From positions 1,830,001-1,862,000 of the forward strand of contig NZ_CP040006.1 in NCBI RefSeq assembly GCF_005696695.1: a DNA stretch of 32,000 nt. The letters run 5' to 3'. The position numbers and the translations under genes are program-made. Numbering within the stretch: the stretch's first letter is position 1; each line of letters starts with the position of its first letter. The stretch is from Schaalia odontolytica. GTDB lineage: Bacteria > Actinomycetota > Actinomycetes > Actinomycetales > Actinomycetaceae. Below the pieces are notes generated by a model. It saw only the letters and a program-made list of their open reading frames with translations, searched no databases and was not told the DNA's origin. This document shows positions 2,007 to 19,831 of this stretch, piece after piece.

Positions 2007-2008
2007 GA

Positions 2009-3725: not shown

Positions 3726-4421
3726 ATGACAACTTTGACGAAGCCCACCGCACGAGCCGCATCCACGGCTCTCGCATTCGAGCACGCGTCGGATCTTGCC
3801 GCCTCCGCCGACAACGCCATCAAGCGCATGTGCGACATTTTCGCAGCTCTTTTCGGCATTATCCTGCTGACCCCGCTGTGGATTATTGTCGCCGCGATGG
3901 TGCGCCTGAACGACGGCGGCCCCGCTCTCTTCACTCAGGAGCGCGTCGGCCTCGACGGCAAGACTTTTACCATGTTTAAGTTCCGCACCATGCGCGTGGA
4001 CGCCGAAGAGCTCAAAGCCTCCCTCATGGAGGCCAACGAGGCCGACTCCTCCGCCGGAAATTCGATCATGTTCAAAATGGCCAACGATCCGCGCATTACG
4101 CGCATCGGAGCCTTCCTGCGCAAGACGTCGATCGACGAGCTGCCCCAGCTGTTCAACGTCCTGCGTGGCGACATGTCCCTCGTGGGCCCGCGCCCCCCAC
4201 TCCCCAGCGAGGTCGCACAGTACGAACCCCGCGTGATGGGCAAGTTCGCCGTCCGCCCCGGCATCACCGGTCTCTGGCAGATCTCCGGCCGCTCGAACCT
4301 CTCCTGGGATGAGACCGTCCACCTGGACCTCTCCTACGCCCAGCACCGCTCCCTCACCCTCGACGCGTGGATCATGCTTCAGACCATCCCCGCGCTCCTG
4401 CGTCACGAGGGCGCCTACTAA
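3726..4421 (+). CDS. Small monotopic phosphoglycosyl transferase (bacterial sugar transferase family, PglC / WbaP C-terminal-like); initiating enzyme
   Basis: 231-aa ORF. One N-terminal hydrophobic helix (IFAALFGIILLTPLWIIVAAMV), then PALFTQERVG..GK.F.MFKFRTM, DELPQLFNVLRGDMSLVGPRP and GITGLWQISGRS, the signature blocks of this family. Confidence 0.85.
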   Translation: MTTLTKPTARAASTALAFEHASDLAASADNAIKRMCDIFAALFGIILLTPLWIIVAAMVRLNDGGPALFTQERVGLDGKTFTMFKFRTMRVDAEELKASLMEANEADSSAGNSIMFKMANDPRITRIGAFLRKTSIDELPQLFNVLRGDMSLVGPRPPLPSEVAQYEPRVMGKFAVRPGITGLWQISGRSNLSWDETVHLDLSYAQHRSLTLDAWIMLQTIPALLRHEGAY

Positions 4422-5207: not shown

Positions 5208-5371
5208 AACCCCCATCGCAGCCGCCTGGAGCGTACGTCGCCGGATACAGGGGCGTGGCCACACTGGCCGCACACATTGCCAGATGACAGCAGGTACGAG
5301 CAACCGTCCCTACGCGCCAGTAGCCGTCACCACCTACCATCGGGCAGCACCAGCCCATCTGGCGATGCAAA

Positions 5372-5426: not shown

Positions 5427-6206
5427 TCAGCGAAGCGTCACGCCACCGACCAGTCCGAGATCGTCGAAGCTACCCATTGCCTCGAGCCGCGAGATGAGCT
5501 CGGGCGCGTGAGCGACGAAGTCGAGGGCTTCGACGGTGTAGCGCTTGGTGAGCCGCTTGGGCTCGTGCGCGATGCGCCAGGCCCACCCGAGGCGGGCGGC
5601 GTGCACCCAGTTCGGGAAATAGTCGTCGGCAGCGCGTGCGTACTGGTCGATCCAACCGCCCGCGGTGCACACGGACGCCTCGGGCAGGAGGCCGAGAACG
5701 AAGGACGCGACGACCTCCTGGAGACCGGCCCCCAGGCCGACGATCACGAGGCGTGGATCGAAGGCAGTGAGCACCGAGGGATCGACCTTCAGCCGACGAA
5801 GCCCCTCGTACCCGTCGATGACCTGCACATCGAAGCGGTGCAGGCGCTCGGCTGCGGCCTGACCAGCCTCGGGAACAGCCCCGATGAGGGTGATGCGGGT
5901 GCCATCCTCGAGGCGTTCAAAGACGTGCGGCAGGACGAGGTCCGCGGAGGTGCGGGCGACCTCGTGGCCTGCTGCGCGCAGACGCATCTGCAGGAGGGTC
6001 CCGTCGAAGCCGACGGTGTGCATGCGGGCAAGCGCACGGAAGTCGGCGTGCAGGAGGGACCAGTGGTTGAGCCACGTGGTCGTGTGCCCTCGGGTGAGCA
6101 CGCGCTGCGCCATCGCGTCGAACGCGGGGTCGGTCGCGGGGGCGCCGACCGCGCCGGCGGCCTCGGCCTCTTCCGAGCCGCCGGCGGGGGTTGACGTCAC
6201 GGTCAT
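5427..6206 (-). CDS. WecG/TagA/CpsF-family glycosyltransferase (GT26-like)
   Basis: The ORF contains GFDGTLL, LIGAVPE, IVGLGAGLQE and the C-terminal RLGWAWRIAHEPKRL.KRY block typical of TagA/WecG enzymes. The ATG at 6206 is preferred because GAGGTG sits 6 nt upstream. A GTG at 6215 is an alternative. Confidence 0.85.
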   Translation of the reverse strand: MTVTSTPAGGSEEAEAAGAVGAPATDPAFDAMAQRVLTRGHTTTWLNHWSLLHADFRALARMHTVGFDGTLLQMRLRAAGHEVARTSADLVLPHVFERLEDGTRITLIGAVPEAGQAAAERLHRFDVQVIDGYEGLRRLKVDPSVLTAFDPRLVIVGLGAGLQEVVASFVLGLLPEASVCTAGGWIDQYARAADDYFPNWVHAARLGWAWRIAHEPKRLTKRYTVEALDFVAHAPELISRLEAMGSFDDLGLVGGVTLR

Positions 6207-6211
6207 GGAGA

Positions 6212-9200
6212 TCACCTCACCAGGCTTGCCGTGAGATCAAAGGTCACGGACGATGCTTTCGCGTAGTTGGCGTGAGACTCAACGGCGATACGGTTGACGC
6301 CATCCTTGAGCAGCTTGCGGGGCACCGTGATGCGCACGAGCTTGTTCTTCGCCGTAGTGAGGCCCACGTTGGAGGAGGCTCGCGTGTTGGCGTCGATCGT
6401 GCCCTCGGGCATGTTCACGCGCTTAATTTCGGTGCCGTTCACGTAGATGACTGCACCATCGTCAACGCGGACATCGAGGGTGACCTCGAAGTCGGCGCTG
6501 AGGGTACCGAAGTTGACGTCACGCACGAAGTAGTTCGTGATGGCTCGGTCCGCCGCAGGCATCGTGAAGGGCGTACCGGCGTCGCGGTCGCCCCAGCCGA
6601 GCGGGCTGGCGCCGTGCTTCCACGAGGACAGGTCGGCGGTGGAGTTCCACTTGGCGTCGGGCGCTTCCTTGGAGTTCCAGTAGTTCCAGTACATGCCCGA
6701 GAACAGGAAGGGTCCGAAGTTAAGCGCAGACACGTCGAGGACCTCGAGGGGCTTGTCCGGGTCAGGCGTGAGCGGAACATCCGGCTGCGGCTGGGGTGCC
6801 GGCTCCGGTTCGGGCGCGGGAGCGGGTGCCGGCTCGTTGCCCTTAGTGACGACCTGTACCATGCCGTCGATGGTCATCGACGAGCTGGAGCGGTAGTTCA
6901 GGTGTGTTTCGACGGCCAGCGTGTTCGCGCCGGCGACCAGCTTGTCCGCGGGGACGAAGACCAGCTGTCGGTCGGCTCGCGCAGAGGGCGTCGAGACAGA
7001 GGCGGATGCGAATGTAGACGCGTCAACCGTTCCATCGCCCATGCGCTGGCGAGCCACCTCGTTGCCGTTGACGTACACCACGGCACCATCGTCAGCCGTC
7101 ACGGCGACGTTGACGCCGCCGATGGCGGTGGGATCAGCGACCGTGAAGTTGATTCGCGCGTAGGTGGTGACGGGGCGGGTCTTGGCCGTGCCCGGGGTCA
7201 GCTTCGTGTTGAGGCCGGGGCCGCCGTAGCCGATCGGGGATGCACCGCGGCTCCATGCAGAGTCGTCGAACGAGGTCTGGGCCCAGTTCTCGGCGACCGG
7301 ATCGGTCGACCAGTGGTACGCCCAGGTGTCGTCCTCGTCGACGAGCAGCGAAGAATCGTCGGGCTGCGCGGGCTTACCGTTGGAGTCGACCACGTAGGCG
7401 TGCGTGGACGCGCCGCGCAGGCCGTCGGAGGCGACAGCGCGCACGAAGAAGCGGTTCTTGCCGCCCAGGGGCACGGTCACGGAGTTCGAGGTCGTGGTGG
7501 CGATCGGACGATCGTCACGCAGGATGTCGTAGGAGACGGCACCGGGCACGGAGGACCACTTGAGGGTCACCTGCTGGGAGTTGCCGTCGGAGGCGCGCAG
7601 GTTGGCGGGCACGGCGGGTGCGGTAGCGTTGCGCGCAGGCATGCGCACGAAGCCGCCGGACCACTGTCCCGAGGTGAGCGACGTGTAGGAGTAGTTGAAG
7701 TCGCCGCCTGCCCACAGCGCGCCGTCGTCGCCCATTTCGAGGGCCCACGCGCCGGTGAAACGCTGGGAGGACAGGCGGTAGGGGGTCCAGCCGAGCTGGC
7801 GGCCCGTGGCCTCGTCCCAGCCGCCGACCCACTGGATTTCGTCGGCACGCGTCCAGGAGGTGCCCAGCGTCAGGTAGTGGTAGGCGTCCTGGAAGGCGAA
7901 GTCGGAGCAGTGGCACGAGGCGTAGACGACACCCGTGGCGGAGCGGGTGCTCGCCTGAACGTCTCCGCCGTTCTGCATGGTGATGGAACCCGAGGTGCGG
8001 GTCATCGAGTCGGAGTTGTATCCGAAGAGCGAGTGCTGCGAGCCGCCGAAGTACACGCGGCCGTTGCGCGCGGTGACGGTCTGCTGGTACTTGCCGATCA
8101 GGTAGGAGTGCTGGAAGGTCCAGGACGAGTCCAGCGCAGCGCCGGTGGCTGTGGACAGTCGACCCGCATTTTCGACGACCAGGTTGTGCGCGCGCGTGAA
8201 GTAGCCGGCAGCGTAGTAGTAGGTCTCGTTTTCGTCAACGTCGATATCAATGACGGTGCCGTTGAACTCGGGGTTCCACGAGCGGTCGGGCTTGCCGTTG
8301 ATATCGAGGCGCGCGCCGTTACGGGCATAGGTCCACGACGCACCGTTGCCCTGGAAGTGCGTGAAGATACCGCCCAGGTAGATGTGGTCGTTGATGATCT
8401 TGATGGACTTCACCGAGACGCGGCCACCGTTGGCGCCGGTGCGCGCCTGCAGGGTCCACGACGGGTCGATCTGGCCGGTCGCGGGGTCGATCAGAACCGT
8501 GCCGACGTGGGTCTCACCGTTGACCCGGGTGAAGTCGCCGGCCACGAGGAGCTTGCCGTTAGGCAGCTCAGCGAGGTCCTTGACCTGGTTGTTGAAGGAG
8601 AAGGTCTGTCCGTTCCACTCCCCCGTCGTCGCGTCGAAGCCGGCGAGACCACTGGAGGCGATTTCCTGGCCGTTCTTACCCTTCTGCACGCCGGTGAAGT
8701 TACCGCCGACGTACATGGTCGAGCCGATCTGCTCGAAGGCCTGGACCTGGATATTGCCTTCCTTGTAGGAACCGTTGAGGTTGCCGGTCACGCCCCAAGA
8801 CATCGGCGAGGCGAACTCAGAAGCGGTGTCCTTCTGCTTTTCGGCGGGCGTGCCGCCGTCGCCGATGGCGCGGAAGCTGGCATCCGTCGAGCGCAGCTGC
8901 GGGCGGATGTAGGCCTCGGCGTAGGGGTTAATGATCGAGCCGTTGTAGTGGAAGTACGACGTCGAGGAGGACGTGTCGGCCCACGACGTGGCGAGAGGGC
9001 CGTAACCCCAGCCCATCGTGTACTTGTTCTGCGCGGAGGCCGTCAGGTTGACGTATCCCCAGCCAGTGTTCGTGCCGAAGCCCGACCAGACGATGCCGCC
9101 GTTGACCCACCACTCGCGGTTGAACTTCACGTCCACGGGGTGGGCGCTCTTAAAGGGCCAGATGAAGTCGCGCATCTTCGGGAAGCGCATGCGTACCGTC

Positions 9201-9676
9201 TGGTAGGCGGTGCCCCTGTGGTTCCAGGCGCGCTGGACCATGATGCCGTCATCGAGGTCGGAGACCGCGGTGCCGCCGAGCAGGCCGTTGACGGTTTCGT
9301 GCGAGGCCTGGACGACGTCGAAGTCGCCGGCCGTACGCGGACGGGTCTTGAGCTTCTCCTGGTCGCCCTTCCCTTGGCTCCACGTCTCCCAGCCTTCGCG
9401 GCCGCGACCGATGAGGACCCAGCCGCCGCCGTCCGTGGTCTGGTCGCAGAAGAACTGGCCGGGGGCCTCCATGGTGGAGGTCTGCAGCCAGTACGTTCCG
9501 TTCTGAGAACGCGGGTCGTTCTGCTTGATTTCCCAGCACGAGGCCGCAGCGGTGGCCTCGCTCAGGCCATCGTGGAGCGGGTCGGCGGCTGCGTGGGCAG
9601 CCGGGGAAAATGCAAGCACGCTCAGGCCGGTCACTGATGCCAGTCCGAGCGCCAAGCAACGGCGCATAAAACTCAT
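6212..9676 (-). CDS. Secreted multidomain protein (FReD1): signal peptide, fibrinogen-like YCDxxxxGGGW-type domain, beta-propeller-like repeats, FN3, two galactose-binding-like jelly-roll domains
   Basis: 1154-aa ORF. The signal peptide ends in AHA. SCWEIKQ..GTYWLQT..FFCDQTTDGGGWVLIGRGREGW resembles the fibrinogen C-terminal signature. There are about 6-7 G(G/D)xFT..V.G units and an FN3-like block (VTLKWSSVPGAVSYDILRDDRPIA). Two FDDSAW..G.SP(I/L)G(Y/W)G...DDGAV(V/I)YVNG domains are separated by a PAPAPEPEP linker. There is no LPXTG or C-terminal TM. GAGGA sits upstream of the ATG. Confidence 0.85.
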   Translation of the reverse strand: MSFMRRCLALGLASVTGLSVLAFSPAAHAAADPLHDGLSEATAAASCWEIKQNDPRSQNGTYWLQTSTMEAPGQFFCDQTTDGGGWVLIGRGREGWETWSQGKGDQEKLKTRPRTAGDFDVVQASHETVNGLLGGTAVSDLDDGIMVQRAWNHRGTAYQTVRMRFPKMRDFIWPFKSAHPVDVKFNREWWVNGGIVWSGFGTNTGWGYVNLTASAQNKYTMGWGYGPLATSWADTSSSTSYFHYNGSIINPYAEAYIRPQLRSTDASFRAIGDGGTPAEKQKDTASEFASPMSWGVTGNLNGSYKEGNIQVQAFEQIGSTMYVGGNFTGVQKGKNGQEIASSGLAGFDATTGEWNGQTFSFNNQVKDLAELPNGKLLVAGDFTRVNGETHVGTVLIDPATGQIDPSWTLQARTGANGGRVSVKSIKIINDHIYLGGIFTHFQGNGASWTYARNGARLDINGKPDRSWNPEFNGTVIDIDVDENETYYYAAGYFTRAHNLVVENAGRLSTATGAALDSSWTFQHSYLIGKYQQTVTARNGRVYFGGSQHSLFGYNSDSMTRTSGSITMQNGGDVQASTRSATGVVYASCHCSDFAFQDAYHYLTLGTSWTRADEIQWVGGWDEATGRQLGWTPYRLSSQRFTGAWALEMGDDGALWAGGDFNYSYTSLTSGQWSGGFVRMPARNATAPAVPANLRASDGNSQQVTLKWSSVPGAVSYDILRDDRPIATTTSNSVTVPLGGKNRFFVRAVASDGLRGASTHAYVVDSNGKPAQPDDSSLLVDEDDTWAYHWSTDPVAENWAQTSFDDSAWSRGASPIGYGGPGLNTKLTPGTAKTRPVTTYARINFTVADPTAIGGVNVAVTADDGAVVYVNGNEVARQRMGDGTVDASTFASASVSTPSARADRQLVFVPADKLVAGANTLAVETHLNYRSSSSMTIDGMVQVVTKGNEPAPAPAPEPEPAPQPQPDVPLTPDPDKPLEVLDVSALNFGPFLFSGMYWNYWNSKEAPDAKWNSTADLSSWKHGASPLGWGDRDAGTPFTMPAADRAITNYFVRDVNFGTLSADFEVTLDVRVDDGAVIYVNGTEIKRVNMPEGTIDANTRASSNVGLTTAKNKLVRITVPRKLLKDGVNRIAVESHANYAKASSVTFDLTASLVR

Positions 9677-9737
9677 GGGGTCCTCACAGGTATCGCGTAA
9701 ATGGTTACTTCTATAGTGTCACGATAATTGCCAGCGC

Positions 9738-9752
9738 TCAACCACTTGGTTA
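9738..9752 (-). promoter_or_regulatory. Conserved 15-bp element upstream of FReD1 (TCAACC-N3-TGGTTA on the plus strand)
   Basis: TCAACCACTTGGTTA lies 62-76 nt upstream of the FReD1 ATG. The same pattern, TCAACCGAATGGTTA, lies 65-79 nt upstream of the FReD2 ATG. On the coding strand its 3' end reads TTGA(G/T)C, which is -35-like. Confidence 0.35.
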
Positions 9753-9785
9753 GGAGGAGGTGGGAGTCGTTTACCACATACAAGT

Positions 9786-9812
9786 CAACCCCTGCCAAAA
9801 CGGCAGGGGTTG
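9786..9812 (-). terminator. Hairpin between the two FReD paralogs (terminator-like)
   Basis: CAACCCCTGCC (9786-9796) pairs with GGCAGGGGTTG (9802-9812) around a 5-nt loop. It lies about 90 nt past the FReD2 stop. The T-tail on the minus strand is weak (ACTTGTATGT). Confidence 0.4.
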
Positions 9813-9902
9813 GACCTGTCAACACGATTCACGAGCTGGATCGAACCATTTTCACTGGCTCACACCTCGCGCGAACTCGAGCGGAGAAGAACGATTCTTC
9901 CC

Positions 9903-12900
9903 TTATTTCACAAGAGTTGCGTTCAGATCGAAGGTCATCGAGGGCGAGCCCTTGTAGTTGAGGTGTTCCTCAACGCCGATGCGGTTCACGCCGCTTGTCA
10001 AGAGGCTGGCGGGGATGGTGACCTCGAGCAGATCGGAGGCTGCCTTGGCGGCACTCACGGCCGAGTTCGCGTAGGTGGTGTGAGTAATGTTTCCATCGGA
10101 CATACGTTTCGTGTCGATGACCTTGCCATTGACTCGTAGAACGACACCGTCATCCGCGCGCACCTTGACGGTCAGCGAGGTGTTCGGGGTGATCGCGCCC
10201 AGGTCAATGTCGCGCGCGAAGTAGTACGTGATCGCACGATCCTTCTTGGCAATGTCGAGGGCGGTCGCCGCACCGGAGTCTCCCCAGCCGATCGGGCCGG
10301 AACCGCGGTTCCAGCTCTGGAAGGAGCCGGTCGTGGCCCAGTCGGAGGCGGGGGCTTCCGTCGAGGTCCAGTAGTTCCACTCGTCGCCGGTCTGGATGAC
10401 CGTGCCGGACTTGACGGAGGCCGCGTTGATCGGCTGCGTCGCGTCGGTCGGCTGGGTGCTGCGATCGGCGGGAACAGAGCTGTTGTCGTCCGGGGTGCCA
10501 TCCACGCGGAAGATGGAGGCCTGCATGGACACGGTCGCGGTGCGCAAGTAGTTGACGTGGGTTTCCACGGCGATCACGTTGTCACCGGTCTTCAGCGCCG
10601 ATGCGGGGACGAAGATCTCGGACTGGGAGGCGGAAGCCGCAGCGAAGTTGGGAGCGGCGTCGGCGCGGGTCGTGTAGCTGACCGTGCCGGCACCCATGCG
10701 GGTGCGGTCCACCTCGACGCCGTTGATGTAGACGACGGCGCCATCGTCGGCCAGGTACTTGACGTTGATACCCTTGAGGCCCTTCGCGTCAGCCACCTGG
10801 AAGTGCGTGCGGTAGTAGGTCGTCACGGGGCGCGAGCCCTTGGTGGCGATCTGGGTCGTGATCGCAGAGTCACCGTAGCCCAGGGGGGCTGCGCCGGTCG
10901 GCCACGCGGAGTCGTCGAACGAGGCCTGGGCCCAGTTCTCGGGGGCAGCGCTGGCGTCAGCGCGGTAGTTCCACGTCGCATCGGCCTCGAGGAGGAACGG
11001 GTTGGAGGCGTCCACCTGGCCCGGAGCCGGAGCGGCGTAGACCGCGGTGGTCGCGGAGCGGTTGCCCTCGGCGTCGACGGCGCGCACGAAGTAGCGGTTC
11101 TCGCCGCCGCGCGGCACCTCGACAGTGGTGGTCTCGGAGGTGGCGATCGGACGATCGTCGCGCAGGATCTCGTAGGACACGGCGTCGGCGACGCCTTCCC
11201 AGGCGAGGGTCACGGTGGAGTCGTTGGACGCGGAGGAACGCAGGTAGGAGGGCGCCTCGGGCGCGACGTTGTCGCGGTTGTCGTAGCGGGCGAAGCCGCC
11301 GTTCCACTGGGTGCGCGTGGCGTCGGTGTGGGAGAGCGTGAAGTCGCCACCCACCCACAGGTTGCCGTAGTTATCGCTCGTCAGCGCCCAGGCGCCGGTC
11401 TTGCGGCGCGAGGAGAGCTCGAAGGGGGTCCACTTCAGGCTCTCGCCGGTAGCGGCATCCCACGCACCGACCCACTTGATCTCGTCGACGCGCGACCAAG
11501 AGCCGTTCATCGACCAGACGTACATGTCCTGGTAGGTGCTGTCGGAGCAGTGGCAAGAACCGTAGATAACACCCTTGGCGGACACGGTCGTAGCCTGGAG
11601 GTCGCCACCGTTGCTGAAGGTCATGGCGCCGGAGACGCGCTGGTTGGTGGCGGTGTCGTAGCCGAACAGGGAGTGCTCGGAACCGCCGACGTAGACGCGG
11701 TTGCCCGCCGTGGCGATGGTCTGCTGGTACTTACCGGCAGTGGCGCTAGAAGGCTCGAAGTTGAAGCCCGCGTCCAGGGCAGCACCCGGCTCGGTGGAGA
11801 ACTTGGCGGCGTACCAGGCACGCTGATTACCGTGCGCGGTGGTGAAGTGGCCGCCCGCGTAGAAGGCGCTGTTCGCCTCGGAGACGCCGACCGCCTGGAC
11901 GGAGCCACTGATCTCGGGGTTCCACGAACGGTCGGGGCGCGCATCAAGACCAACGCGGCCGGCGTTGCGTGCGTAGACCTTAGTGCGGCCGCCGCCGGAC
12001 AGGTGGGTGAACGATCCGCCCATGTAGACGTTGCCGTCGTAGTAGGCCAGGGCGCGCACGCTCACGGCACCGCCGCGCAGCGCGTTGATGACCTGCAGGT
12101 CCCACGAGGGGTCGATCTGGCCCGTCGAGGGGTTGATAACGACGGTGCCGGAGTGGGCCTCGCCGTTGACGCGGGTGAAGTCACCGCCGACGAGGAGGCG
12201 ACCGTCGGGCAGGGCGAGGAGGGCCTTGACCTGCGCGTTGAAGTCGAAGGTCTGGCCGGTGAAGTCGCCGGTGGCCACGTCGAAGGCCGCAAGGCCGCGC
12301 GAGGAGATCTCGGCGCCCTTCTCACCCTGCTTCACACCGGTGAAGTTGCCGCCCACGTACATGGTGGAGCCGACCTGGGCGAAGGCCTGGACCTGGATGT
12401 TGCCCTCACGGACGGAGCCGTTGAGGTTGCCGCTCACGCCCCACGAGGTCTTGGCGGCGTACTGCGAGACGACACCTGAAACCGTCGAGGCGCTCAGGCC
12501 CTCGTCTGGGATGCGGGCGAAGGCAGCCGAGTCCGAGGAGATGCGCGGACGCACGTAGGCCTCGGCGTAGGGGAAGACCGTCAGGCCCGACTTGTGGAAG
12601 TAGGAGGTTGCGGAGGTGACGTCACCGGTCCAGTTGGCGGTGAGAGCACCGTAGCCCCAGCCCGTCTTCCAGCCCGTGATACGGGCGGAGGGGTAGGTCT
12701 GCAGGCCGTTCCACTCGTTGTCGTAGCCGGTCAGGCCCCACATGAGGCCAGAGCGCCAGCCGCCCTTGTCGAGCTGGATGTTGACCGGGTGGGCCATCTT
12801 GAAGGGCCAGACGAAGTCCGTCATCTTCGGGAACTGAAGATCCACCGTCTGGTAGGAGCGGCCCGACGCGCTCCACGAGCGCATGACGCGCACGCCGTCG

Positions 12901-13358
12901 GCCTGGTCCTTGACCGGCTCGTTGTTGAGGAGCTCGGTGACGGACTTGTTGGAGAGCTGAACGACCTCGAAGTCATCGGAGGTCCGCGAGCGAGAGGTCA
13001 ACTTCGCAGGATCGCCCTTGCCGCCGCTCCAGGATTCCCATCCTTCACGGCCGCGGCCGATCAGGACCCAGCCGCCGCCATCTGTCGTCTGGTCACAAAA
13101 GAACTGGGCGGGGTGATCCATCGCAGGAGTCTGGAGCCAGTAGGCGCCATCCGCTGCCTCAGGATTCCGCTGCTTAATGTCCCAGCACGACGCGGCTGCA
13201 GTCGCGGCGCTCGAACCGTCGCGAACAATAGCCTGACCGGGTGCCGAATCTCCCTGACCTGCACCAACAGCGTGAGCCATCGGAGCGAGCGCGAGGGAAG
13301 CGCAGGCGACAATCGGCGCAGTTGCAAGGATTGCAAGGCGCGAAATCGCAGAAGCCAT
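9903..13358 (-). CDS. Secreted multidomain protein (FReD2), paralog of 6212-9676 with the same architecture
   Basis: The ORF is colinear with FReD1. Shared blocks include an identical FFCDQTTDGGGWVLIGRGREGWE, GNIQVQAF.Q.GSTMYVGGNFTGV, SCHCSD, ILRDDRPIAT and DDGAVVY(V/I)NG. The start is set at the ATG at 13358 (MASAISRLAIL..., signal peptide ending AHA, GAAAGG upstream) rather than the ORF-track Met at 13394, which has no SD. Confidence 0.85.
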   Translation of the reverse strand: MASAISRLAILATAPIVACASLALAPMAHAVGAGQGDSAPGQAIVRDGSSAATAAASCWDIKQRNPEAADGAYWLQTPAMDHPAQFFCDQTTDGGGWVLIGRGREGWESWSGGKGDPAKLTSRSRTSDDFEVVQLSNKSVTELLNNEPVKDQADGVRVMRSWSASGRSYQTVDLQFPKMTDFVWPFKMAHPVNIQLDKGGWRSGLMWGLTGYDNEWNGLQTYPSARITGWKTGWGYGALTANWTGDVTSATSYFHKSGLTVFPYAEAYVRPRISSDSAAFARIPDEGLSASTVSGVVSQYAAKTSWGVSGNLNGSVREGNIQVQAFAQVGSTMYVGGNFTGVKQGEKGAEISSRGLAAFDVATGDFTGQTFDFNAQVKALLALPDGRLLVGGDFTRVNGEAHSGTVVINPSTGQIDPSWDLQVINALRGGAVSVRALAYYDGNVYMGGSFTHLSGGGRTKVYARNAGRVGLDARPDRSWNPEISGSVQAVGVSEANSAFYAGGHFTTAHGNQRAWYAAKFSTEPGAALDAGFNFEPSSATAGKYQQTIATAGNRVYVGGSEHSLFGYDTATNQRVSGAMTFSNGGDLQATTVSAKGVIYGSCHCSDSTYQDMYVWSMNGSWSRVDEIKWVGAWDAATGESLKWTPFELSSRRKTGAWALTSDNYGNLWVGGDFTLSHTDATRTQWNGGFARYDNRDNVAPEAPSYLRSSASNDSTVTLAWEGVADAVSYEILRDDRPIATSETTTVEVPRGGENRYFVRAVDAEGNRSATTAVYAAPAPGQVDASNPFLLEADATWNYRADASAAPENWAQASFDDSAWPTGAAPLGYGDSAITTQIATKGSRPVTTYYRTHFQVADAKGLKGINVKYLADDGAVVYINGVEVDRTRMGAGTVSYTTRADAAPNFAAASASQSEIFVPASALKTGDNVIAVETHVNYLRTATVSMQASIFRVDGTPDDNSSVPADRSTQPTDATQPINAASVKSGTVIQTGDEWNYWTSTEAPASDWATTGSFQSWNRGSGPIGWGDSGAATALDIAKKDRAITYYFARDIDLGAITPNTSLTVKVRADDGVVLRVNGKVIDTKRMSDGNITHTTYANSAVSAAKAASDLLEVTIPASLLTSGVNRIGVEEHLNYKGSPSMTFDLNATLVK

Positions 13359-13473: not shown

Positions 13474-14961
13474 CTACCCCCGATGACGCCTCGCCAGGGA
13501 CCCAAGTCCCGACAGGTGCAGACGATCCCTAAACGCCCAGCAAACACAGGCGAAAACCAGGACCGAGAGCGCCGAGCCACCAATGGTCGCAACGAAAGAA
13601 TCGCGCCCCAGCCACCATGCTATACACCCGCCCGGAATCACCGCAGATACGCCCACAACCAGAATCGGCTTGACCACTTCCGACAATTTCGGTGTCACAC
13701 CGATAAACCGCGAGACCTGAACGGTCGCCATGGTCGCGTCAAGCACCATGCACACGGCCCAGACGATCGCCGCAGCGACCATTCCTCCGCGAGGAATAAA
13801 GATGACGTTACCCACAACGTTGAGGGTAAGGACCACGATCTTGTTGACCGCTGCCCACCCGGAGCGTCCACTCATGATGAGCAGAGAGTGAATGTTTCCC
13901 GCCATGAAAGTCACGATGGAGCCGATGCACAGGACCACGAGGACGTTCGCGCCGGGAGCGAAGCCGTCACCGAGGATGCGCATGAGCGCGGGCGCGTAGA
14001 TCGCCATGAGGGCGTAGATCGGGGCGGCGAACAGGACAAGCCAGATCGAGGCCGTGCTGTAGAGGTCACGCAGCTCCTTCGTCTTACCCTGGTGCAGGAG
14101 TTTGGAGAACTGCGGGGAGACGACGACCCGCAAAGCCGTGTCGACGACCATGCCCGCCTGAATGAAGCGAATGGCGCCACCGTAGATGCCCGAGGCCGCA
14201 TCGCCCGCCAGGAGACCGACGAGGAGGACGTCGAGCCACTGCAGCGCCTGCTCGAGGCCGGCGGTGAGGGTGCGAGGAAGCGCGAAGGACACGACCTGAC
14301 GACGCCGCTGCGCACTTGGCCAGCGGCCCACCGAGTCGGCCGCCGAGGGCATGTGTCGCAGCAGCAGCCACCACGCGGCGACGAGGACAACGACGAAGGG
14401 CAGCGCCCAGGCGACCGAGACGAAGGCCAGCGACCCGGTGAACGCAGCCGCGAGCGCAACGAGGAGCGGGCGCAGGCCGGGCAGCAGCAGGTTCTGAATG
14501 AGGACGTACTCGCGCATGTTGCCGAGCGCCCGCAGGGCGGCGGATGCGACCAGGGTGAGGGCGCCGATCGGCACGAACCACAGGACGGCCCGGGTGGATG
14601 CCGCCACCTCGGCGTTCCAGATCAGGGGGGCCACGGCCTCGAGAATGAGGACGCACACGGTGGATACGCCCACCGTCAGGGAGGCCATGAAGGACAGGGT
14701 CGCGCGGATCTCTTCGGGAGCATCCAGGGACAGGCGAGGCATCAGGTAGATGGCGGTGGAGTCGAGGCCCACCTTGGCCAGGGCCATGACGATCGCGAAG
14801 ACGCCGGTCGCCTGGGTGACGATACCGGCTCCCTCGGCGCCCAGCATGCGCGACAGGATGATCGTGAACGCGAAGCCCAGGACCGCCGAGGCGGCCGCTC
14901 CGACGAAGCCAACGATGCCCCCGCGCGCGAGGGAACGCCTGGCTTGATTTGCCTCACTCAT
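13474..14961 (-). CDS. Polysaccharide/oligosaccharide flippase (Wzx, MOP superfamily)
   Basis: 495-aa ORF, highly hydrophobic with about 12-14 predicted helices. The N-terminus (..ARGGIVGFVGAAASAVLGFAFTIILSRMLGAEGAGI) is typical of polysaccharide biosynthesis (Wzx-type) proteins. GGGAAGG sits upstream of the ATG. Confidence 0.8.
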   Translation of the reverse strand: MSEANQARRSLARGGIVGFVGAAASAVLGFAFTIILSRMLGAEGAGIVTQATGVFAIVMALAKVGLDSTAIYLMPRLSLDAPEEIRATLSFMASLTVGVSTVCVLILEAVAPLIWNAEVAASTRAVLWFVPIGALTLVASAALRALGNMREYVLIQNLLLPGLRPLLVALAAAFTGSLAFVSVAWALPFVVVLVAAWWLLLRHMPSAADSVGRWPSAQRRRQVVSFALPRTLTAGLEQALQWLDVLLVGLLAGDAASGIYGGAIRFIQAGMVVDTALRVVVSPQFSKLLHQGKTKELRDLYSTASIWLVLFAAPIYALMAIYAPALMRILGDGFAPGANVLVVLCIGSIVTFMAGNIHSLLIMSGRSGWAAVNKIVVLTLNVVGNVIFIPRGGMVAAAIVWAVCMVLDATMATVQVSRFIGVTPKLSEVVKPILVVGVSAVIPGGCIAWWLGRDSFVATIGGSALSVLVFACVCWAFRDRLHLSGLGSLARRHRG

Positions 14962-14974
14962 GATTAACCTTCCC

Positions 14975-14990
14975 GCTACCGCGCGGTAGC
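14975..14990. promoter_or_regulatory. Perfect 16-bp palindrome in the 59-bp divergent wzx / 15021 intergenic region (candidate operator)
   Basis: GCTACCGCGCGGTAGC is its own reverse complement. It is flanked by direct TAACCT copies at 14964 and 14999. Confidence 0.35.
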
Positions 14991-15020: not shown

Positions 15021-15674
15021 ATGGACTTCATCAACTCGCTCTCCCCTGCCCGCAAGAAGAGCCTGCTGGCAGCCGCAATTCTCCTCATCATCGCGCTCGT
15101 CATCGCCGGCTTCCTGCGCCTGACGGGCTCCTCTGAGACGGATGCGGCCGCCTCCGCGGCGTCCGGCGCGCAGAGCGCCGAGGAGGACCCGCAGTCCGAC
15201 ATCCCACAGTCCGTCGCGAAGACCATCACCCCGCAGTCGGGCGGGCCCGCAAACGAATCCGGTTCGCTGGCCACGGACGCCGAGGCCGCCGGACAGGCCA
15301 CCTTCGTCATGAACACCCTGTGGGACGCGTACACGGACCCCGAGCAGGCTCGTGCGACCGACCTGTCCTCCGTACTCACCGCCTCGGCGCTGGAGGAGTT
15401 CGACGCGCAGGCTCTCGAGTGGACGAGGGACGGCACCCACACCACCGGCTCACCCACCCTCGAGGACGTGCACATCCTCAGCGATGACGGTGCCGGAAAC
15501 GTCACGGTCTCGGCGTGCGTCGATTCTTCCAACGTTCGCGTCCTCAACGACGCGGGAACTGCGCTGACGGACGACACGACCATGACCCGCGCCCTCACCT
15601 ATTTTCTGTTTGTGAAGGACGGCGGCGCGTGGAAGCTGTCCGGCTTCTCGTTCCCCGACGACCCGACTTGTTGA
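15021..15674 (+). CDS. Hypothetical membrane-anchored extracytoplasmic protein
   Basis: 217-aa ORF. One N-terminal TM (LLAAAILLIIALVIAGFL), a low-complexity acidic/Ser-Ala linker, and a ~130-aa C-terminal globular region. No family was recognised. It is the only plus-strand gene inside the locus, and its SD is weak. Confidence 0.55.
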   Translation: MDFINSLSPARKKSLLAAAILLIIALVIAGFLRLTGSSETDAAASAASGAQSAEEDPQSDIPQSVAKTITPQSGGPANESGSLATDAEAAGQATFVMNTLWDAYTDPEQARATDLSSVLTASALEEFDAQALEWTRDGTHTTGSPTLEDVHILSDDGAGNVTVSACVDSSNVRVLNDAGTALTDDTTMTRALTYFLFVKDGGAWKLSGFSFPDDPTC

Positions 15675-17112
15675 GTCGAGCAAGCATGTGAGTGGCAAAA
15701 GCCCCGTCGTTCGCGGCGGGGCTTGTCCATTGCCCCATGCGCACCGCGCGCTGGGCGCGGACGGTCCCGGCGACGCTACCGGCGCTCGCGCGGCCGTCGC
15801 GCTCGACCTCGGCGCGCTTGATCGGATCGCTCTCCTCCTCCAGGTGGCGCGACAGGAGCGCCACCGCGACAACGGAGATCATGAGGCCGGTGTTCATGCC
15901 GTAGTAGAACTGCTCCACCAGGGTCGCCAGGATGATGCCGCCCAGGATCGAGCCGTACACGTCCGTGGCGCGCCAGATGCGCGGGAACATGCGCAGGAAG
16001 AAGGCGAGGAACAGCGCCAGGCCAACCAGGCCGTAGGAGAAGATGACCGTCCAGAACTGGCCCTGCGTGCCGAGAGACGGCAGCCACGGCGAGGCCGAGG
16101 GGCGCGGGGCGCCGAAGCCCAGGAGCGGGGACTGCTGGAGCTCATAGAGCGTCTCGAGGTAGTTGGAGGCGCGGTCTTCCGTCGAGGAGGAGGCCGCGAC
16201 GCGCTCAAGGAGCGACTGGGAGGCCGGCGTGGCCAGCCACGCGATCACGCCCACGACGATGGCCGCAACGATACCCAGGACGGTACGCCAGGCTCCCGCG
16301 CGCAGGCGCTGGAAACCCACCCACACGACGATAACAATGAGGCCGATGTACATGCCGCGGTTGAGCGTCGCGGCTGCCGGAATGACCGACAGAGCGCACA
16401 CGGCGGCCACGATGAAACGCCACTTGGAGCGCTCGCGCCACAGCACGTACGCGAAGACGAGCGCGAGCGGGAAGATCAGCGAGTAGACGTTACCGTAGGT
16501 GTTGGAGTAGATGAAGGGGGCCGACGGGCGCGGGTCGGAGAGGATCCACGACGACGGGTTCCACTGGGTGGTCGCGCGCTTCGTGAACTCTTTGACGAAG
16601 TCGTTGGAGTGCAGGGCGCGCGGCACCAGGTAGTACATGAGCGTCTTGAAGCGCAGCGTCGGCGCCGCCATGGCGATGAAGCCGCCGATGGTGGTCGACG
16701 CCAGGAAGCCCCACATCGTGCCGGTAATCGTGCGCACGCTCAGGGACTTGCGTGCGTTGAAGGCGTAGACCGCGAAAATAGCTGGCGAGAGCTCCAGCAG
16801 GAAGCGATAGAACGCGCCGATGACGCGCCCGCCCGTGTCGAGCATGGTCATCGAGGCCAGCACCCACGCCAGGAAGAACACCCACAGGATGGATCCGGGC
16901 GGGAAGCGCAGGCCGTGTCGGCCGATCATGAACACGAGCATGATCGATGCGAACAGCGGCCACATCAGATCACCGGAGCCGAGAACCCACCACAGGAAGT
17001 ACGCCGAATAGGCCACGACGAAGGGCCACGCAGGCAGATCCTGCGCGTCCTCTCGTAGCGGCCCAATTTGGGCGGGGGCGGGTTTGGCCCAGAGTCCTCG
17101 GCGTGGGCTCAC
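15595..17112 (-). CDS. O-antigen polymerase/ligase-like polytopic membrane protein (Wzy-type)
   Basis: 505-aa ORF with about 10-12 hydrophobic helices and a larger loop, in the Wzy position of a Wzx/Wzy locus. Its start ATG overlaps the upstream GT2 stop (ATGA). The basic, non-hydrophobic C-terminal ~90 aa overlaps the convergent gene. Confidence 0.7.
   Translation of the reverse strand: MSPRRGLWAKPAPAQIGPLREDAQDLPAWPFVVAYSAYFLWWVLGSGDLMWPLFASIMLVFMIGRHGLRFPPGSILWVFFLAWVLASMTMLDTGGRVIGAFYRFLLELSPAIFAVYAFNARKSLSVRTITGTMWGFLASTTIGGFIAMAAPTLRFKTLMYYLVPRALHSNDFVKEFTKRATTQWNPSSWILSDPRPSAPFIYSNTYGNVYSLIFPLALVFAYVLWRERSKWRFIVAAVCALSVIPAAATLNRGMYIGLIVIVVWVGFQRLRAGAWRTVLGIVAAIVVGVIAWLATPASQSLLERVAASSSTEDRASNYLETLYELQQSPLLGFGAPRPSASPWLPSLGTQGQFWTVIFSYGLVGLALFLAFFLRMFPRIWRATDVYGSILGGIILATLVEQFYYGMNTGLMISVVAVALLSRHLEEESDPIKRAEVERDGRASAGSVAGTVRAQRAVRMGQWTSPAANDGAFATHMLARLNKSGRRGTRSRTASTRRRPSQTENR
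15699..15724. terminator. Bidirectional-looking terminator hairpin just after the 15021-15674 CDS
   Basis: AAGCCCCG (15699-15706) pairs with CGGGGCTT (15717-15724). An A-tract lies upstream and TTGTCC downstream on the plus strand. On the minus strand it is followed by TTTTGCC. It lies inside the 3' end of the Wzy-like ORF. Confidence 0.45.
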
Positions 17113-18452
17113 GCGTTGCCGTTCCCTTCGCCGGTCGTCTCCGTCGCGGACGAGGCCTGGGCCTCCTCAGCGCTGCTCGGTGCGGTCACGCTATCCTGCG
17201 CGGGGGCCGGCTCGGCCTGGCGCGGGGCGCCAAGCTTGTTGCGCTTGCGCGACGACAGGTAGAGGAAGGGACCCTCGAGGAAGCCCTTGATCTCGGACTT
17301 GGTGAGCGAGCCGGGCACGTCCTCGTCGGTGCCGGCGACGCGAGCGCCACCGAGCTTGACGCGGTTGAGGACGCCGGGCACACGGGTCGCCAGCGTGCCG
17401 AGCACGGAGGGTTTGGCGATGATCGCCTTCGTCAGGAGCGCCGCCATACCCGAGCCGTTGCCGCGGATCTGCTTGTCCAGGCCGGCCTCGTCGACGCGGT
17501 GACGGTGGTGCACGAGAGCGTCGGGCGTGTGGACGATGACGTCACCCGTGGCCAGGATGCGCGCGAACATGTCGAGGTCCTCGCCGCCGCGCGTCGAGGT
17601 GCCGGCGCCCAGCGCCGGATCGAAGGGACCGACCTCCATGAGGACGTCGCGACGCATGGCCATGCACACGCCCGCACCCACGCGGGCCGTCGTGATCGGG
17701 AACAGCGGGCCGCCGTCCCCCTTCTCGCCCAGGACCTCCAGGCCCTCGGGGATATCGCCGACGCACCACACGCGCGGGGACATGTCCTTGGGGAAGCCGC
17801 CGCGCGACTCGAACCACCGCTGGGGCGCGTAGCGCTGCTCCAGGGGCAGCGCGATACCCGTCGTGGCGGCCACGTACGGCGAGGCCGTGAACGGGTCGAT
17901 CATGGCGGTCAGCCAGTGCGGGTCGACGATCGCGTCGTCATCCGTGAAGACGATGACTTCGCCGCGAGCAGCCAGCACGCCGCGGTTGCGGGCGCGAGAC
18001 AGGCCCGGACGGGAGGCAGAGACGATGCTCAGGCGCGTATCGTCGATACCCGCGAGCTTCTCCCGAGTCAGGCCCGTGTGCGGAGCGTTATCCACCACGA
18101 CGAGCGTGAAACGCTGGTGATCCTGGGCCAGGATGGCGCGCACGGCATCCTCGAGCATGTCGCACGAGCCGACCGTGCACATGACGACGGTCGCGTCCAC
18201 GTCGGCGCCAGCGCCCTCTTCCCAGCCGCGCGCAGGGGCCGGTTCGACCTCGAGCACGCGCGGATCGGTCTCCGGATGGTCCGTGCCCTCGATCTCGACG
18301 AACGCCGAGTTACGGCCGTTATCGCGCACGAGCACGAGCGCTCGCGGATCCGACGGGTCGCCCGAAATCAGCTGGGAGACGCGCGCAGTGCGGTCAACGT
18401 GCCAGATCGAGGCGGCCTTGTGGTCGGCTGCGGTGGTCTCCTCGGCGGTCAT
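17109..18452 (-). CDS. Family 2 glycosyltransferase with an N-terminal ~95-aa extension
   Basis: VVMCTVGSCDMLEDAVRAILAQ....LVVVDNAP, SRARNRGV and VIVFTDDDAIV (DxD) are GT2 hallmarks. ATGA overlaps occur at both ends. Confidence 0.85.
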   Translation of the reverse strand: MTAEETTAADHKAASIWHVDRTARVSQLISGDPSDPRALVLVRDNGRNSAFVEIEGTDHPETDPRVLEVEPAPARGWEEGAGADVDATVVMCTVGSCDMLEDAVRAILAQDHQRFTLVVVDNAPHTGLTREKLAGIDDTRLSIVSASRPGLSRARNRGVLAARGEVIVFTDDDAIVDPHWLTAMIDPFTASPYVAATTGIALPLEQRYAPQRWFESRGGFPKDMSPRVWCVGDIPEGLEVLGEKGDGGPLFPITTARVGAGVCMAMRRDVLMEVGPFDPALGAGTSTRGGEDLDMFARILATGDVIVHTPDALVHHRHRVDEAGLDKQIRGNGSGMAALLTKAIIAKPSVLGTLATRVPGVLNRVKLGGARVAGTDEDVPGSLTKSEIKGFLEGPFLYLSSRKRNKLGAPRQAEPAPAQDSVTAPSSAEEAQASSATETTGEGNGNA

Positions 18453-19831
18453 TTCTTGCCCTTCTTCGAGGAAGCCTTGGCGTCCGACTTCTTGGAATCG
18501 GACGTGTCTTCCGTTTCCTTGGTAGGCGTGGATTCAGCGGCATCGACCTCAGGTTCCGAGGTCTGGGCGGACCCAGCCGGTGCCTCGTCCTTGGGGACAA
18601 TGACCTCGGCAGACTGAGCGGGAGCGGTCGGAGCGGAGGCGGGCGCGGCCACCTGGTCGCCCAGGTAGATCATGCCGTTCACCTCGCGGTTGATGATCGC
18701 GAGCTCGTCGAGCAGGTGGTGCAGCTTCTTCAGATCGTGACCCTTACGCACGGCGACGAGGACGTGGCGCGAGGGGCGGACCTCGTCGAGGAGCGAGGCG
18801 AGGGGCTGGTTGATGTCGATGAGGCGCGGCGCGGGCACACGGGTCTCAGCCAGCGAGGCGGACAGGACGCGATGCAGGTCGCGGGCCTGCGGGTCAGATG
18901 CGTCGACGATCAGGTCAACCCAGTGATCGCGGTCGATCGCCATCGCGAGCATGCGGGTGGGGGCGAGCCACGGCTCGGGGGCACCCTCCTCGGCACTCCA
19001 CACGGGCAGCGCCGTCAGGTCGGCGAGCTGCGTGGGCGAGATCAGGGAGCGCGAGCGGGTCTCACGGATGAGGACCAGGACCAGGCCCGCGAAGACGCCA
19101 ACGACGGTCGAGATCAGGATCAGTCGCACCTTCGAGGGCGAGACCTCGTCGCTCGAGGCCGCGGCCGGGGTGATCACGCGGCCGGCGGTGGCGTGGTAGG
19201 GGGCAAGCTGCTCGGCATCCTTCGCAAGCTTCGTCAGCTCGGTGCGAATCTCGGAGGCGCGCGGGTTGTCCTTCGTGTTGCCGTCCTCGTCGACCAGGGG
19301 GGTCAGGCCGGCGAGCTCGGTCTCCAGAGCCTGGATCTGCTCGTTGATGCCGGCGGCCATCTCGTCGGCGCGCTGCTCGACGAGGGCGGTGCGCTCGGTC
19401 AGGTAGGCGTTGGCGATCGCGTCCGCGGCGTCAACGGCCTGCTGGCGCGTGGGAGCCACGTACTCGATCTTGACGATCGTGCCGTTCGTGTCGCCGGACA
19501 CCTCCATGTTGGAGCGAAGCTCCTCGGCGGTGACGCCATTGCCGAGGCGCGCGGCTGCGACGTCGAGGACGGCGGCGGACTTCGCGATACCCTGCTCGGT
19601 CACCATGTCCGTCGTATTCGACAGGGAGGCGCGCACGGCGGGAGCCGGGGTGATCGACGGAGACGTCACGGTCATCGACACGGCCGCCGAGTGCGACGTG
19701 GGGACACCAAAGGCGGCTGCGACACCTACGACCAGGCCGGCCACGGTCCCCGCAACGATCGAGGTCCAGCGGCGTGCCAGCGCGTGACGAAGGATCTGCT
19801 GGCCGCCCGTGGGCGGAGGGGTCAGGATCAT
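18449..19831 (-). CDS. Wzz-like polysaccharide co-polymerase fused to a degenerate (P-loop-less) BY-kinase-like domain with a Lys-rich tail
   Basis: TM1 (IVAGTVAGLVVGVAAAFGV), a periplasmic coiled-coil region, and TM2 (LILISTVVGVFAGLVLVLI). This is followed by a ~150-aa domain (LIVDASD ... VLVAVRKGHDLKKL..LLDEL......NGMIYL) with no GxxxxGK[ST] seen by eye. The start is set at the ATG at 19831, which has AAGGAG 8 nt upstream and an ATGA overlap with the GT2 stop. Confidence 0.7.
   Translation of the reverse strand: MILTPPPTGGQQILRHALARRWTSIVAGTVAGLVVGVAAAFGVPTSHSAAVSMTVTSPSITPAPAVRASLSNTTDMVTEQGIAKSAAVLDVAAARLGNGVTAEELRSNMEVSGDTNGTIVKIEYVAPTRQQAVDAADAIANAYLTERTALVEQRADEMAAGINEQIQALETELAGLTPLVDEDGNTKDNPRASEIRTELTKLAKDAEQLAPYHATAGRVITPAAASSDEVSPSKVRLILISTVVGVFAGLVLVLIRETRSRSLISPTQLADLTALPVWSAEEGAPEPWLAPTRMLAMAIDRDHWVDLIVDASDPQARDLHRVLSASLAETRVPAPRLIDINQPLASLLDEVRPSRHVLVAVRKGHDLKKLHHLLDELAIINREVNGMIYLGDQVAAPASAPTAPAQSAEVIVPKDEAPAGSAQTSEPEVDAAESTPTKETEDTSDSKKSDAKASSKKGKK

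Follow-up and report, generated by a model that had tools for sequence, protein, structure and literature searches.

What are two exported proteins with fibrinogen-like domains doing in the middle of a bacterial glycopolymer locus? Fibrinogen-related domains (FReDs) are mostly known as innate-immunity and matrix modules of animals. The proteins in question are encoded by two tandem paralogous genes, here named FReD-A and FReD-B, in a stretch of 32,000 nucleotides of the Schaalia odontolytica genome (contig NZ_CP040006.1, positions 1,830,001 to 1,862,000, assembly GCF_005696695.1), which we refer to in full as the window. An earlier reading of its letters, hereafter the original prediction, had drawn attention to the pair, and we followed it up computationally. 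We regard it as an even bet that the FReD proteins are extracytoplasmic partners of their cognate polymer pathway and that their β-propeller carries a functional site. The evidence comes from the domain architecture, from the conserved residues of the propeller, from gene linkage across Actinomycetota, and from a conserved membrane-anchored partner.

Architecture of the tandem FReD proteins

FReD-A and FReD-B are 49% identical over their full length and share one layout: a Sec signal peptide, the FReD, a predicted seven-bladed propeller of the DUF5122 type, a fibronectin type III (FN3) domain, and two galactose-binding-like modules (Table 1). The original prediction had described two minus-strand open reading frames (ORFs) of common architecture, with signal peptides ending in AHA and without a C-terminal anchor, and this description held throughout. 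Both signal peptides terminate in AHA, and neither protein carries an LPXTG or other C-terminal anchor. Signal-like N termini were found throughout the FReD-propeller family, with no consistent Tat motif across it. The linkers of the FReD proteins are short and not Ser/Thr-rich. Both genes have a GC content at third codon positions (GC3) of 0.86 to 0.87, as in the neighboring genes and as is typical of real genes here. Since the orthologs are 1151 aa long, translation of FReD-B almost certainly starts at M13 of its ORF, at position 13358, in agreement with the original prediction.

Judged from its predicted structure, the N-terminal domain has a true fibrinogen-related fold, though a divergent one. 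At the sequence level, both proteins contain the block SCW(E/D)IKQ...YWLQT...FFCDQTTDGGGWVLIGRGREGWE. Both also have C47, C77, and FFCDQTTDGGGW, residues that were invariant among 51 diverse family sequences. The NCBIfam model NF040941 (GGGWT_bact), which spans only 46 residues, matched FReD-A with 70.4 bits and FReD-B with 72.3 bits (cutoff, 30). The Pfam model PF00147 (Fibrinogen_C) gave 18.1 and 15.8 bits, under the gathering threshold of 22, and aligned at model positions of about 5 to 56 of 221. The profile search that the original prediction had called for was thus far above the cutoff with NCBIfam and fell short with Pfam, although two more distant family members narrowly exceeded the Fibrinogen_C threshold (23.8 and 23.2 bits). 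With an alignment of 51 diverse sequences from an exhaustive profile search as input, AlphaFold modeled the domain with a pLDDT of 91.6 and a pTM of 0.86, whereas 13 close sequences had given a pLDDT of 38. Foldseek comparison of this model with the PDB returned 121 matches at an E value of ≤1e-3, and the top 50 were all FReDs, among them FIBCD1 (1.3e-6), L- and M-ficolin, tenascin-C and -R, the angiopoietins, tachylectin-5A, and fibrinogen. These 50 matches had a probability of 1.0 over about 250 aligned columns, with TM scores of 0.40 to 0.50, root mean square deviations of 7 to 8 Å, and 11 to 16% identity. Animal FReDs end in a C-terminal "...IRP" strand, which the ...Y(V/I)RP end of the domain in FReD-A and the family resembles. 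Together, the NF040941 scores, the model, and the Foldseek matches bear out the claim of a fibrinogen-type N-terminal domain that includes the Cys pair of the first disulfide.

Less of the animal ligand site is evident. The N-terminal domains hold two cysteines in all, and family-wide no cysteines other than C47 and C77 are invariant; the second (P-subdomain) disulfide of FReDs is absent in both window domains. Furthermore, no conserved Ca2+-binding DxD or acidic pair in the C-terminal third was evident among the family-wide invariants of the sequence. Since there is neither a second disulfide nor an evident conserved acidic pair, the acetyl-binding, Ca2+-dependent pocket of the animal proteins cannot be assumed. 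The analogy with lectins for acetylated sugars, which had been part of the original prediction, is therefore weak, with TM scores of 0.40 to 0.50, the first disulfide only, and no DxD evidently conserved.

When the family profile was searched against the PDB, the nearest solved structures by sequence were intelectins (E values of 7.7e-8 to 4e-6), followed by tenascin, FIBCD1, angiopoietin, and fibrinogen, each match covering only about 50 residues. We rejected an intelectin-like identity: a match in the second stretch, GIVWSGFGTNTGWG, was nonsignificant (i-E value of about 1e3), and the structural matches are classical FReDs. The intelectin-specific Ca2+- and diol-binding region gave no significant alignment, as the similarity ends at about residue 95, and no intelectin was found among the top 50 Foldseek matches.

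The FReD is followed by the propeller, for which the original prediction had counted six to seven units with a conserved SCHCSD motif. FReD-A has seven blade signatures at regular intervals (324 GGNFT, 379 AGDFT, 435 GGIFT, 490 AGYFT, 544 GGSQH, 587 SCHCS, and 657 GGDFN), which fits that count. The DUF5122 model (PF17164) scored 27.9 bits against a threshold of 27 when the FReD-A propeller region was scanned alone, and 40 to 42 bits in orthologs. Pfam also returned sub-threshold matches to Rax2 and Reg_prop repeats, and the scan matched no enzyme family in the propeller. Sequence and profile searches of the PDB found no propeller relative among solved structures. Weak deaminase matches near the CHC motif (E value of about 0.3) were dismissed as noise.

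Conservation within the propeller was counted in 98 representatives at ≤50% identity. In FReD-A numbering, the most conserved residue was Q574 (96 of 98), followed by H548, D572, and H589 (95 each), D659 (87), R456 (85, with Lys in 8 others), and C588 and C590 (81 each). The conserved polar residues occupy individual blades, 4 to 7, and do not recur in each blade. Since they are blade specific rather than repeated per blade, they point to one functional site. The pattern is the signature of a single asymmetric site, which may be catalytic or a specific pocket for a ligand or metal; that the propeller acts as a catalyst would be a guess from conservation.

Downstream of the propeller, the predicted FN3 domain and double jelly-roll were recovered as well. 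The family profile matched the FnIII domain of chitinase A1, and the two C-terminal modules, of about 170 aa each, are 38% identical to each other (E value of 2e-28). PF14683 scored 27.3 bits in FReD-A against a threshold of 27, 24.4 bits in FReD-B, and up to 46 bits in orthologs, which also matched BetaGal_gal-bd (42 bits) and BetaGal_ABD2 (30 bits). These models belong to the galactose-binding domain (GBD) clan (PF14683, PF21467, and PF13364). The modules thus match galactose-binding-domain-like profiles and may bind sugars.

An exhaustive hidden Markov model search with the 261-aa N-terminal domain, clustered at 50% identity, yielded 1,906 clusters at an E value of ≤1e-3, 436 at ≤1e-10, and 167 at ≤1e-30. 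The domain lies nearly always directly behind a signal peptide. Of the 94 diverse representatives that reach 750 aa or more, 92 carry the propeller immediately behind the FReD, and in terms of sequence the two are an obligate pair that forms the core unit of the family. The modules behind the propeller differ between members (PKD, LamG_3, or GBD-like). Known catalytic domains were never found among these C-terminal additions in the family, all of which are binding or structural modules. The search also brought up giant proteins of 2,000 to 4,500 aa (P0227, P0271, P0316, P0328, and P0329) with 6 to 15 tandem N-terminal units of about 55 aa that contain the GGGW motif. P0271 comes from the amoebozoan Phalansterium solitarium, so the short GGGW unit also occurs as an independent repeat module outside Actinobacteria.

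The duplication that gave rise to FReD-A and FReD-B is old and both copies have been maintained, as the original prediction had concluded from their synonymous divergence. The 23-aa block FFCDQTTDGGGWVLIGRGREGWE is identical in the two proteins, with 10 of 69 nucleotides different, all synonymous. At residues identical between the proteins, the same codon is used in only 64% of cases. Moreover, orthologous A/B pairs recur in the same order in the S. odontolytica group, Actinomyces sp. ICM47, A. bouchesdurhonensis, P. hongkongensis, and S. georgiae. S. meyeri has a single B-type copy only, and independent duplications in other lineages have given two or three FReD copies. The orthologs of FReD-A (79 to 93% identity) bear the RefSeq name "fibrinogen-like YCDxxxxGGGW domain-containing protein," exactly the naming class mentioned in the original prediction. 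Two homologs depart from the simple pattern. P0021 has a B-type N terminus, yet it is 86% identical to FReD-A overall, and P0164 is equidistant from FReD-A and FReD-B (64% and 63%). In some strains, the tandem paralogs thus seem to have exchanged sequence through recombination or gene conversion.

Linkage to glycopolymer genes and a membrane-anchored partner

We scanned a genome collection with sequence patterns specific to this architecture and obtained 70 related loci, with full-length matches down to 35% identity. They came from Actinomycetaceae, Propionibacteriaceae, Corynebacterium, Micrococcaceae, Microbacteriaceae, Brachybacterium, Nocardioides, Ornithinimicrobium, and others. Linkage was counted in the 53 loci with at least 6 kb of flank on both sides. 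All 53 had at least two of wzx, a wzy-like gene, and a CDP-alcohol phosphotransferase gene within 10 kb of the FReD gene. wzx was present in 51 of the 53 and co-directional with the FReD gene in each of these, and a wzy-like gene was linked in 51. The CDP-alcohol transferase was linked throughout the family, and many loci included a Wzz-like chain-length protein of the polysaccharide co-polymerase (PCP) type. Gene order is shuffled between orders while the linkage is kept, over at least four orders of Actinomycetota. An independently annotated Brachybacterium locus had the same core together with Alg14-like and GT14 enzymes. The original prediction had named two sequence-level outcomes that would speak against it, an N-terminal domain without similarity to FReDs and homologs without linkage to glycopolymer loci. 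Neither was obtained, because the FReD fold was found and the linkage extended to every locus with enough flank across Actinomycetota. Two records, titled "Xylanimonas cellulosilytica strain 352_XCEL" (98%) and "Sanguibacter keddieii strain 250_SKED" (91% protein identity), showed full Schaalia-type synteny. These records (L006 and L007) look taxonomically mislabeled and are really Schaalia or Actinomyces.

The window itself contains the gene set of a Wzx/Wzy-type locus: a priming phosphoglycosyl transferase, a MOP flippase, a Wzy-like protein, a PCP-like protein, two glycosyltransferases of family 2 (GT2), and a WecG/TagA-family enzyme. As had been proposed, the FReD genes lie between the Wzx flippase and the WecG/TagA-family glycosyltransferase. 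The pathway also includes a cytidylyltransferase and a CDP-alcohol phosphotransferase, which makes it probable that the polymer bears a phospho-alcohol decoration and possible that it resembles teichoic acid. The NCBIfam matches of these two enzymes were all far below the equivalog cutoffs.

Three observations go beyond the original prediction: the single polar site of the propeller, the plus-strand priming phosphoglycosyl transferase, and an anchored partner gene. The partner gene, located between wzx and wzy, encodes an N-terminal transmembrane helix, a Pro/Ser/Ala-rich linker, and a C-terminal domain of about 120 aa; in some genera, a lipobox replaces the helix. The domain has invariant cysteines in ACxDSS and as the last residue (FPDDPxC). 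Weak matches to ARC6-like_IMS, a family that we take to have an NTF2-like fold, occurred in 8 of 19 partner members (best E value, 5e-5) and give a faint sequence indication of an NTF2-like domain. The partner had no NCBIfam match and no relative in the PDB. With a profile of the domain, homologs were found in 62 of the 70 loci, and the 8 misses were short contigs. In Micrococcales-type loci, the partner gene ends immediately upstream of the FReD gene and is co-directional with it. This adjacency, and the presence of the partner in every locus with coverage, indicates that the FReD-propeller protein and the partner are a conserved two-gene module. An anchored partner could also explain how a FReD protein without an anchor stays at the cell.

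The plus frame of the partner gene has better codon-position GC than the overlapping minus-strand ORF and is far better conserved at a distance. That ORF (14954-15598) is antisense to the partner gene, just as ORF 3675-4490 is antisense to the priming transferase. We do not regard these two, or the minus-strand ORFs 4865-5275 and 25558-26193, as genes. The partner and wzy-like genes converge, their 3' ends overlapping by about 80 nt (15595-15674), and the starts of the partner gene and wzx are divergent and about 60 nt apart. The locus therefore consists of at least two or three transcription units and is not a single operon. The spacer between FReD-B and FReD-A measures 226 bp, and the GC-rich hairpin in it may act as a partial terminator or stabilizer; FReD-A and wecG would then form a sub-operon.

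TABLE 1 Features of the FReD locus, in window coordinates
Feature	Coordinates	Strand	Remarks
FReD-A gene	6212..9676	-	1154 aa; from ORF and translation; GC3 0.87
FReD-A Sec signal peptide	9590..9676	-	aa 1-29, ends AHA; read from sequence
FReD-A fibrinogen-related domain	8900..9538	-	aa 47-259; C47...C77, GGGW, ends in YIRP strand
FReD-A DUF5122-type β-propeller (predicted, seven-bladed)	7637..8791	-	aa 296-680; seven blade signatures
SCHCSD motif, blade 6 of FReD-A	7901..7918	-	aa 587-592; part of conserved polar site
FReD-A FN3 domain	7382..7618	-	aa 687-765; family profile matches chitinase A1 FnIII (1k85), E=3.2e-5
FReD-A galactose-binding-domain-like module 1	6842..7354	-	aa 775-945; GBD-clan Pfam matches in orthologs
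FReD-A galactose-binding-domain-like module 2	6215..6724	-	aa 985-1154; PF14683, carbohydrate-binding-module-like
GC-rich hairpin	9786..9812	-	12 bp; between FReD-B and FReD-A
FReD-B gene	9903..13358	-	1151 aa from M13; ORF open to 13394
FReD-B fibrinogen-related domain	12546..13187	-	aa 70-283 counted from ORF start 13394; aligned with FReD-A
FReD-B propeller (predicted, seven-bladed)	11280..12437	-	aa about 320-705; by alignment with FReD-A
Partner gene	15021..15674	+	217 aa; between wzx and wzy
Priming polyprenyl glycosylphosphotransferase (Bac_transf)	3726..4421	+	PF02397 233 bits; TIGR03025 304 vs 295.6
WecG/TagA/CpsF-family glycosyltransferase	5427..6215	-	PF03808 71.3 bits; start overlaps/abuts FReD-A stop
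Wzx-type (MOP) flippase	13474..14961	-	PF01943 (Polysacc_synt) 53.5 bits; directly upstream of FReD-B
Wzy/O-antigen-ligase-like membrane protein	15595..17112	-	PF04932 (Wzy_C) 31.5 vs 31.7, borderline
GT2, Wzz/PCP-like protein (GNVR), second GT2	17109..20910	-	GNVR 27.2 vs 27.7, just under threshold
CDP-alcohol phosphotransferase-family membrane enzyme	20729..21511	-	PF01066 40.8 bits
Cytidylyltransferase-like enzyme	21508..22005	-	PF01467 59.5 bits

Outside the polymer genes, the Schaalia locus has folate and one-carbon genes on either side, purU at one end (22276-23280) and glyA-folD at the other (1098-3292). A ZMP/ZTP riboswitch (3332-3416, minus strand; RF01750, 65.1 bits against 39) immediately precedes glyA (2009-3292) and folD (1098-2006), which is an ordinary arrangement before one-carbon metabolism genes. 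The Brachybacterium locus (L051, 1985-5280) is flanked by metE and MTHFR. The recurrence of such flanks could be a conserved chromosomal neighborhood or coincidence. A low-GC island (23500-26300; 45 to 48% GC against about 67% elsewhere) was probably acquired horizontally. It contains a plus-strand ORF of 577 aa (23593-25326) with an N-terminal transmembrane segment and a charged, coiled-coil-like stretch, for which Pfam gave no match, and a plus-strand GNAT acetyltransferase ORF (25654-26175); PADLOC returned nothing for the ORFs of the island. No tRNA genes were found in the window.

Proposed function of the FReD-propeller proteins

According to our model, FReD-A and FReD-B would be exported via Sec as anchorless multidomain proteins of a Wzx/Wzy-type glycopolymer pathway. 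The partner, anchored by its transmembrane helix or by lipid and possibly NTF2-like, would hold the exported protein at the outer face of the membrane, beside the Wzx/Wzy machinery. The divergent FReD and one or two galactose-binding-like modules would attach to the polymer, either while it is being made or once it is exported. The His/Asp/Gln/Arg site of the propeller, perhaps with its Cys-x-Cys, would then act on the polymer or grip it, for trimming, release, modification, or ordered deposition. Three steps of this model are inferred: that the protein binds its cognate polymer, that the partner tethers it, and that there is catalysis of any kind. The lectin, retention, or quality-control roles originally put forward are likewise candidate functions.

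Several points weigh against this model. The proposed function of the proteins is deduced from sequence, a structural model, and gene context. The canonical ligand site of FReDs is not evidently conserved, without a second disulfide or a conserved DxD, and glycan binding by the FReD would be an extrapolation. For the propeller, neither solved structures nor enzyme families yielded a relative. The Wzy_C and GNVR matches are borderline, and gene content does not identify the chemistry of the polymer, which may belong to the cell wall, as the original prediction had it, or be an exopolysaccharide or capsule. The partner gene of the window and the FReD genes are encoded on different strands, which excludes co-transcription here. 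Finally, the loci were found by architecture-specific patterns, and family members with other architectures may sit in other genomic contexts.

A rival account, close to the main reading of the original prediction, makes the FReD proteins pure noncatalytic lectins or matrix proteins, which are bound to and retained by the cognate polymer and organize or cross-link the surface layer. The propeller would then serve just as a scaffold or as an additional place for binding. We take this to be somewhat unlikely. Much of the evidence fits it: the FReD fold, the two GBD-like modules and the exclusively binding-type accessory domains of the family, the lack of a wall anchor, and the universal linkage to polymer genes. 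It also agrees with the rate at which the FReD gene evolves, which is faster than that of its neighbors (in S. meyeri, 68% identity for the FReD gene versus 80 to 92% for the neighboring genes). However, lectin propellers generally repeat their binding site in each blade, and the strongly conserved, blade-specific set of polar residues (two His, Asp, Gln, Arg, and Cys-x-Cys) is unlike theirs. Moreover, the conserved membrane-anchored partner speaks for a protein that is positioned at the membrane and not one that the polymer retains.

The proteins might instead be adhesins for foreign glycans, such as host mucins or those of other microbes in oral coaggregation, with their place in the locus being incidental. 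Animal FReDs and intelectins recognize microbial or host glycans, Schaalia is an oral colonizer, and the FReD proteins diverge relatively fast. Genera of the human mouth and skin (Schaalia, Actinomyces, Rothia, Corynebacterium, and Arachnia) carry the family, and so do soil and cold-habitat genera (Arthrobacter, Cryobacterium, and Microbacterium). The latter argue for an envelope role intrinsic to the bacterium, since module and neighborhood are shared by Actinomycetota of soil, cold, and other nonhost environments. An LPXTG or other wall anchor, expected of a Gram-positive adhesin, is missing, and the tight embedding among the operon genes has been kept over very long evolutionary distances. 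An adhesin is therefore improbable.

A different possibility, to which we assign only a slight chance, is that the FReD proteins are the substrate of glycosylation. The Wzy_C-family protein would be an O-oligosaccharyltransferase (PglL/WsfB-like) and the locus an S-layer-type glycoprotein cluster. The Wzy_C family includes O-oligosaccharyltransferases, and the borderline match leaves the identity of the polymerase unproven. In the S-layer glycan clusters of Gram-positive bacteria, moreover, the structural gene adjoins its glycosylation genes, as the FReD genes do here. The PCP/Wzz-like protein of many loci nevertheless fits polymerization by Wzy, the FReD proteins have no S-layer anchoring domain and no Ser/Thr-rich linkers, and both the propeller site and the partner would be left unexplained.

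We give hardly any credence to the idea that the proteins are copper-radical oxidases, akin to galactose oxidase or GlxA, that act on the glycan: a seven-bladed propeller with conserved His, Tyr, and Cys residues, the name "galactose oxidase" given to some homologs by NCBI or UniRef (P0161, P0167, and P0334), and Streptomyces GlxA, reportedly a propeller-type oxidase whose gene accompanies that of a glycan synthase, speak for it, but the propeller is of the DUF5122 type, with no Pfam match to Glyoxal_oxid_N or DUF1929 and a single insignificant one to Kelch, Y450 and H440 occur in 43 and 55 of the 98 representatives, and there is no Tat signal. We rejected the annotation, as no family signature was detectable and the candidate Tyr and His are poorly conserved; the name seems to have been carried over too broadly from a generic propeller superfamily, and this misleading label on some homologs is hereby corrected.

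The proposal of extracytoplasmic partners with a functional propeller site can be taken further, although we consider the extended version doubtful. The FReD-propeller protein and its partner might be an unrecognized extracytoplasmic enzyme module in an ancestral, widespread actinobacterial Wzx/Wzy pathway for a teichoic-acid-like polymer, and the family a deep bacterial lineage of the FReD fold, as opposed to one acquired recently from animals. If so, the step could be chain release, trimming, or transfer, or the removal or relocation of the phospho-alcohol decoration. A deep bacterial lineage would bear on the origin of the metazoan FReD and intelectin lectins. In its more general form, the proposal provides a testable hypothesis for an extracellular step in the assembly of an uncharacterized actinobacterial surface polymer.

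Relation to known systems

The part of this system that is already known is the short GGGW domain, which is catalogued by NCBI as NF040941. Both window proteins match this model and the orthologs carry its exact name, but the model describes 46 residues with no function assigned, whereas here a domain of about 213 aa, the propeller, the context, and the partner are defined. Bacterial FReDs were reportedly noted by Doolittle and colleagues in 2012. Our literature search found no paper on the FReD-propeller family, its architecture, locus, or partner; a paper on an Actinoplanes exopolysaccharide proved to be unrelated.

The animal FReD lectins (ficolins, FIBCD1, and tachylectin-5A, as well as tenascin and angiopoietin) are the best and only class of PDB match for the fold of the window FReD. 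They have in common with it the A-subdomain disulfide, the CD...GGGW motif, and the terminal (V/I)RP strand. The window domain differs from them in its TM scores of 0.40 to 0.50, its sub-threshold Fibrinogen_C scores, and the lack of a second disulfide or an evident conserved DxD. It is also N-terminal and fused to a propeller, whereas animal FReDs are C-terminal after collagen or coiled coil. Among intelectins, XEEL (4wmo), human ITLN-1 (4wmq), and the lamprey serum lectin (7e1e) gave the best PDB sequence matches, over about 50 residues. In sequence, the window proteins resemble them in having retained no more of the FReD than its N-terminal signature. A very large bacterial family with a confidently predicted FReD fold thus offers a reference point for the evolutionary origin of the FReD and intelectin lectins.

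Other parallels are analogies only. Exported nontransferase proteins are encoded in polymer clusters elsewhere and inherited together with them, as with glycanases or lyases such as PslG, ExoK, and AlgL and in the CslA-GlxA-CslZ system of Streptomyces, in which GlxA is an actinobacterial propeller protein. The FReD proteins have no sequence or family relation to these accessory proteins, and the domains differ. Pneumococcal choline-binding proteins, which bind teichoic acid, and SLH proteins, which bind pyruvylated secondary cell wall polymers, are likewise anchorless and retained by a decorated wall polymer, for whose synthesis there are linked or dedicated genes. These systems use other binding modules and lack the conserved membrane-anchored partner that accompanies the FReD-propeller proteins.

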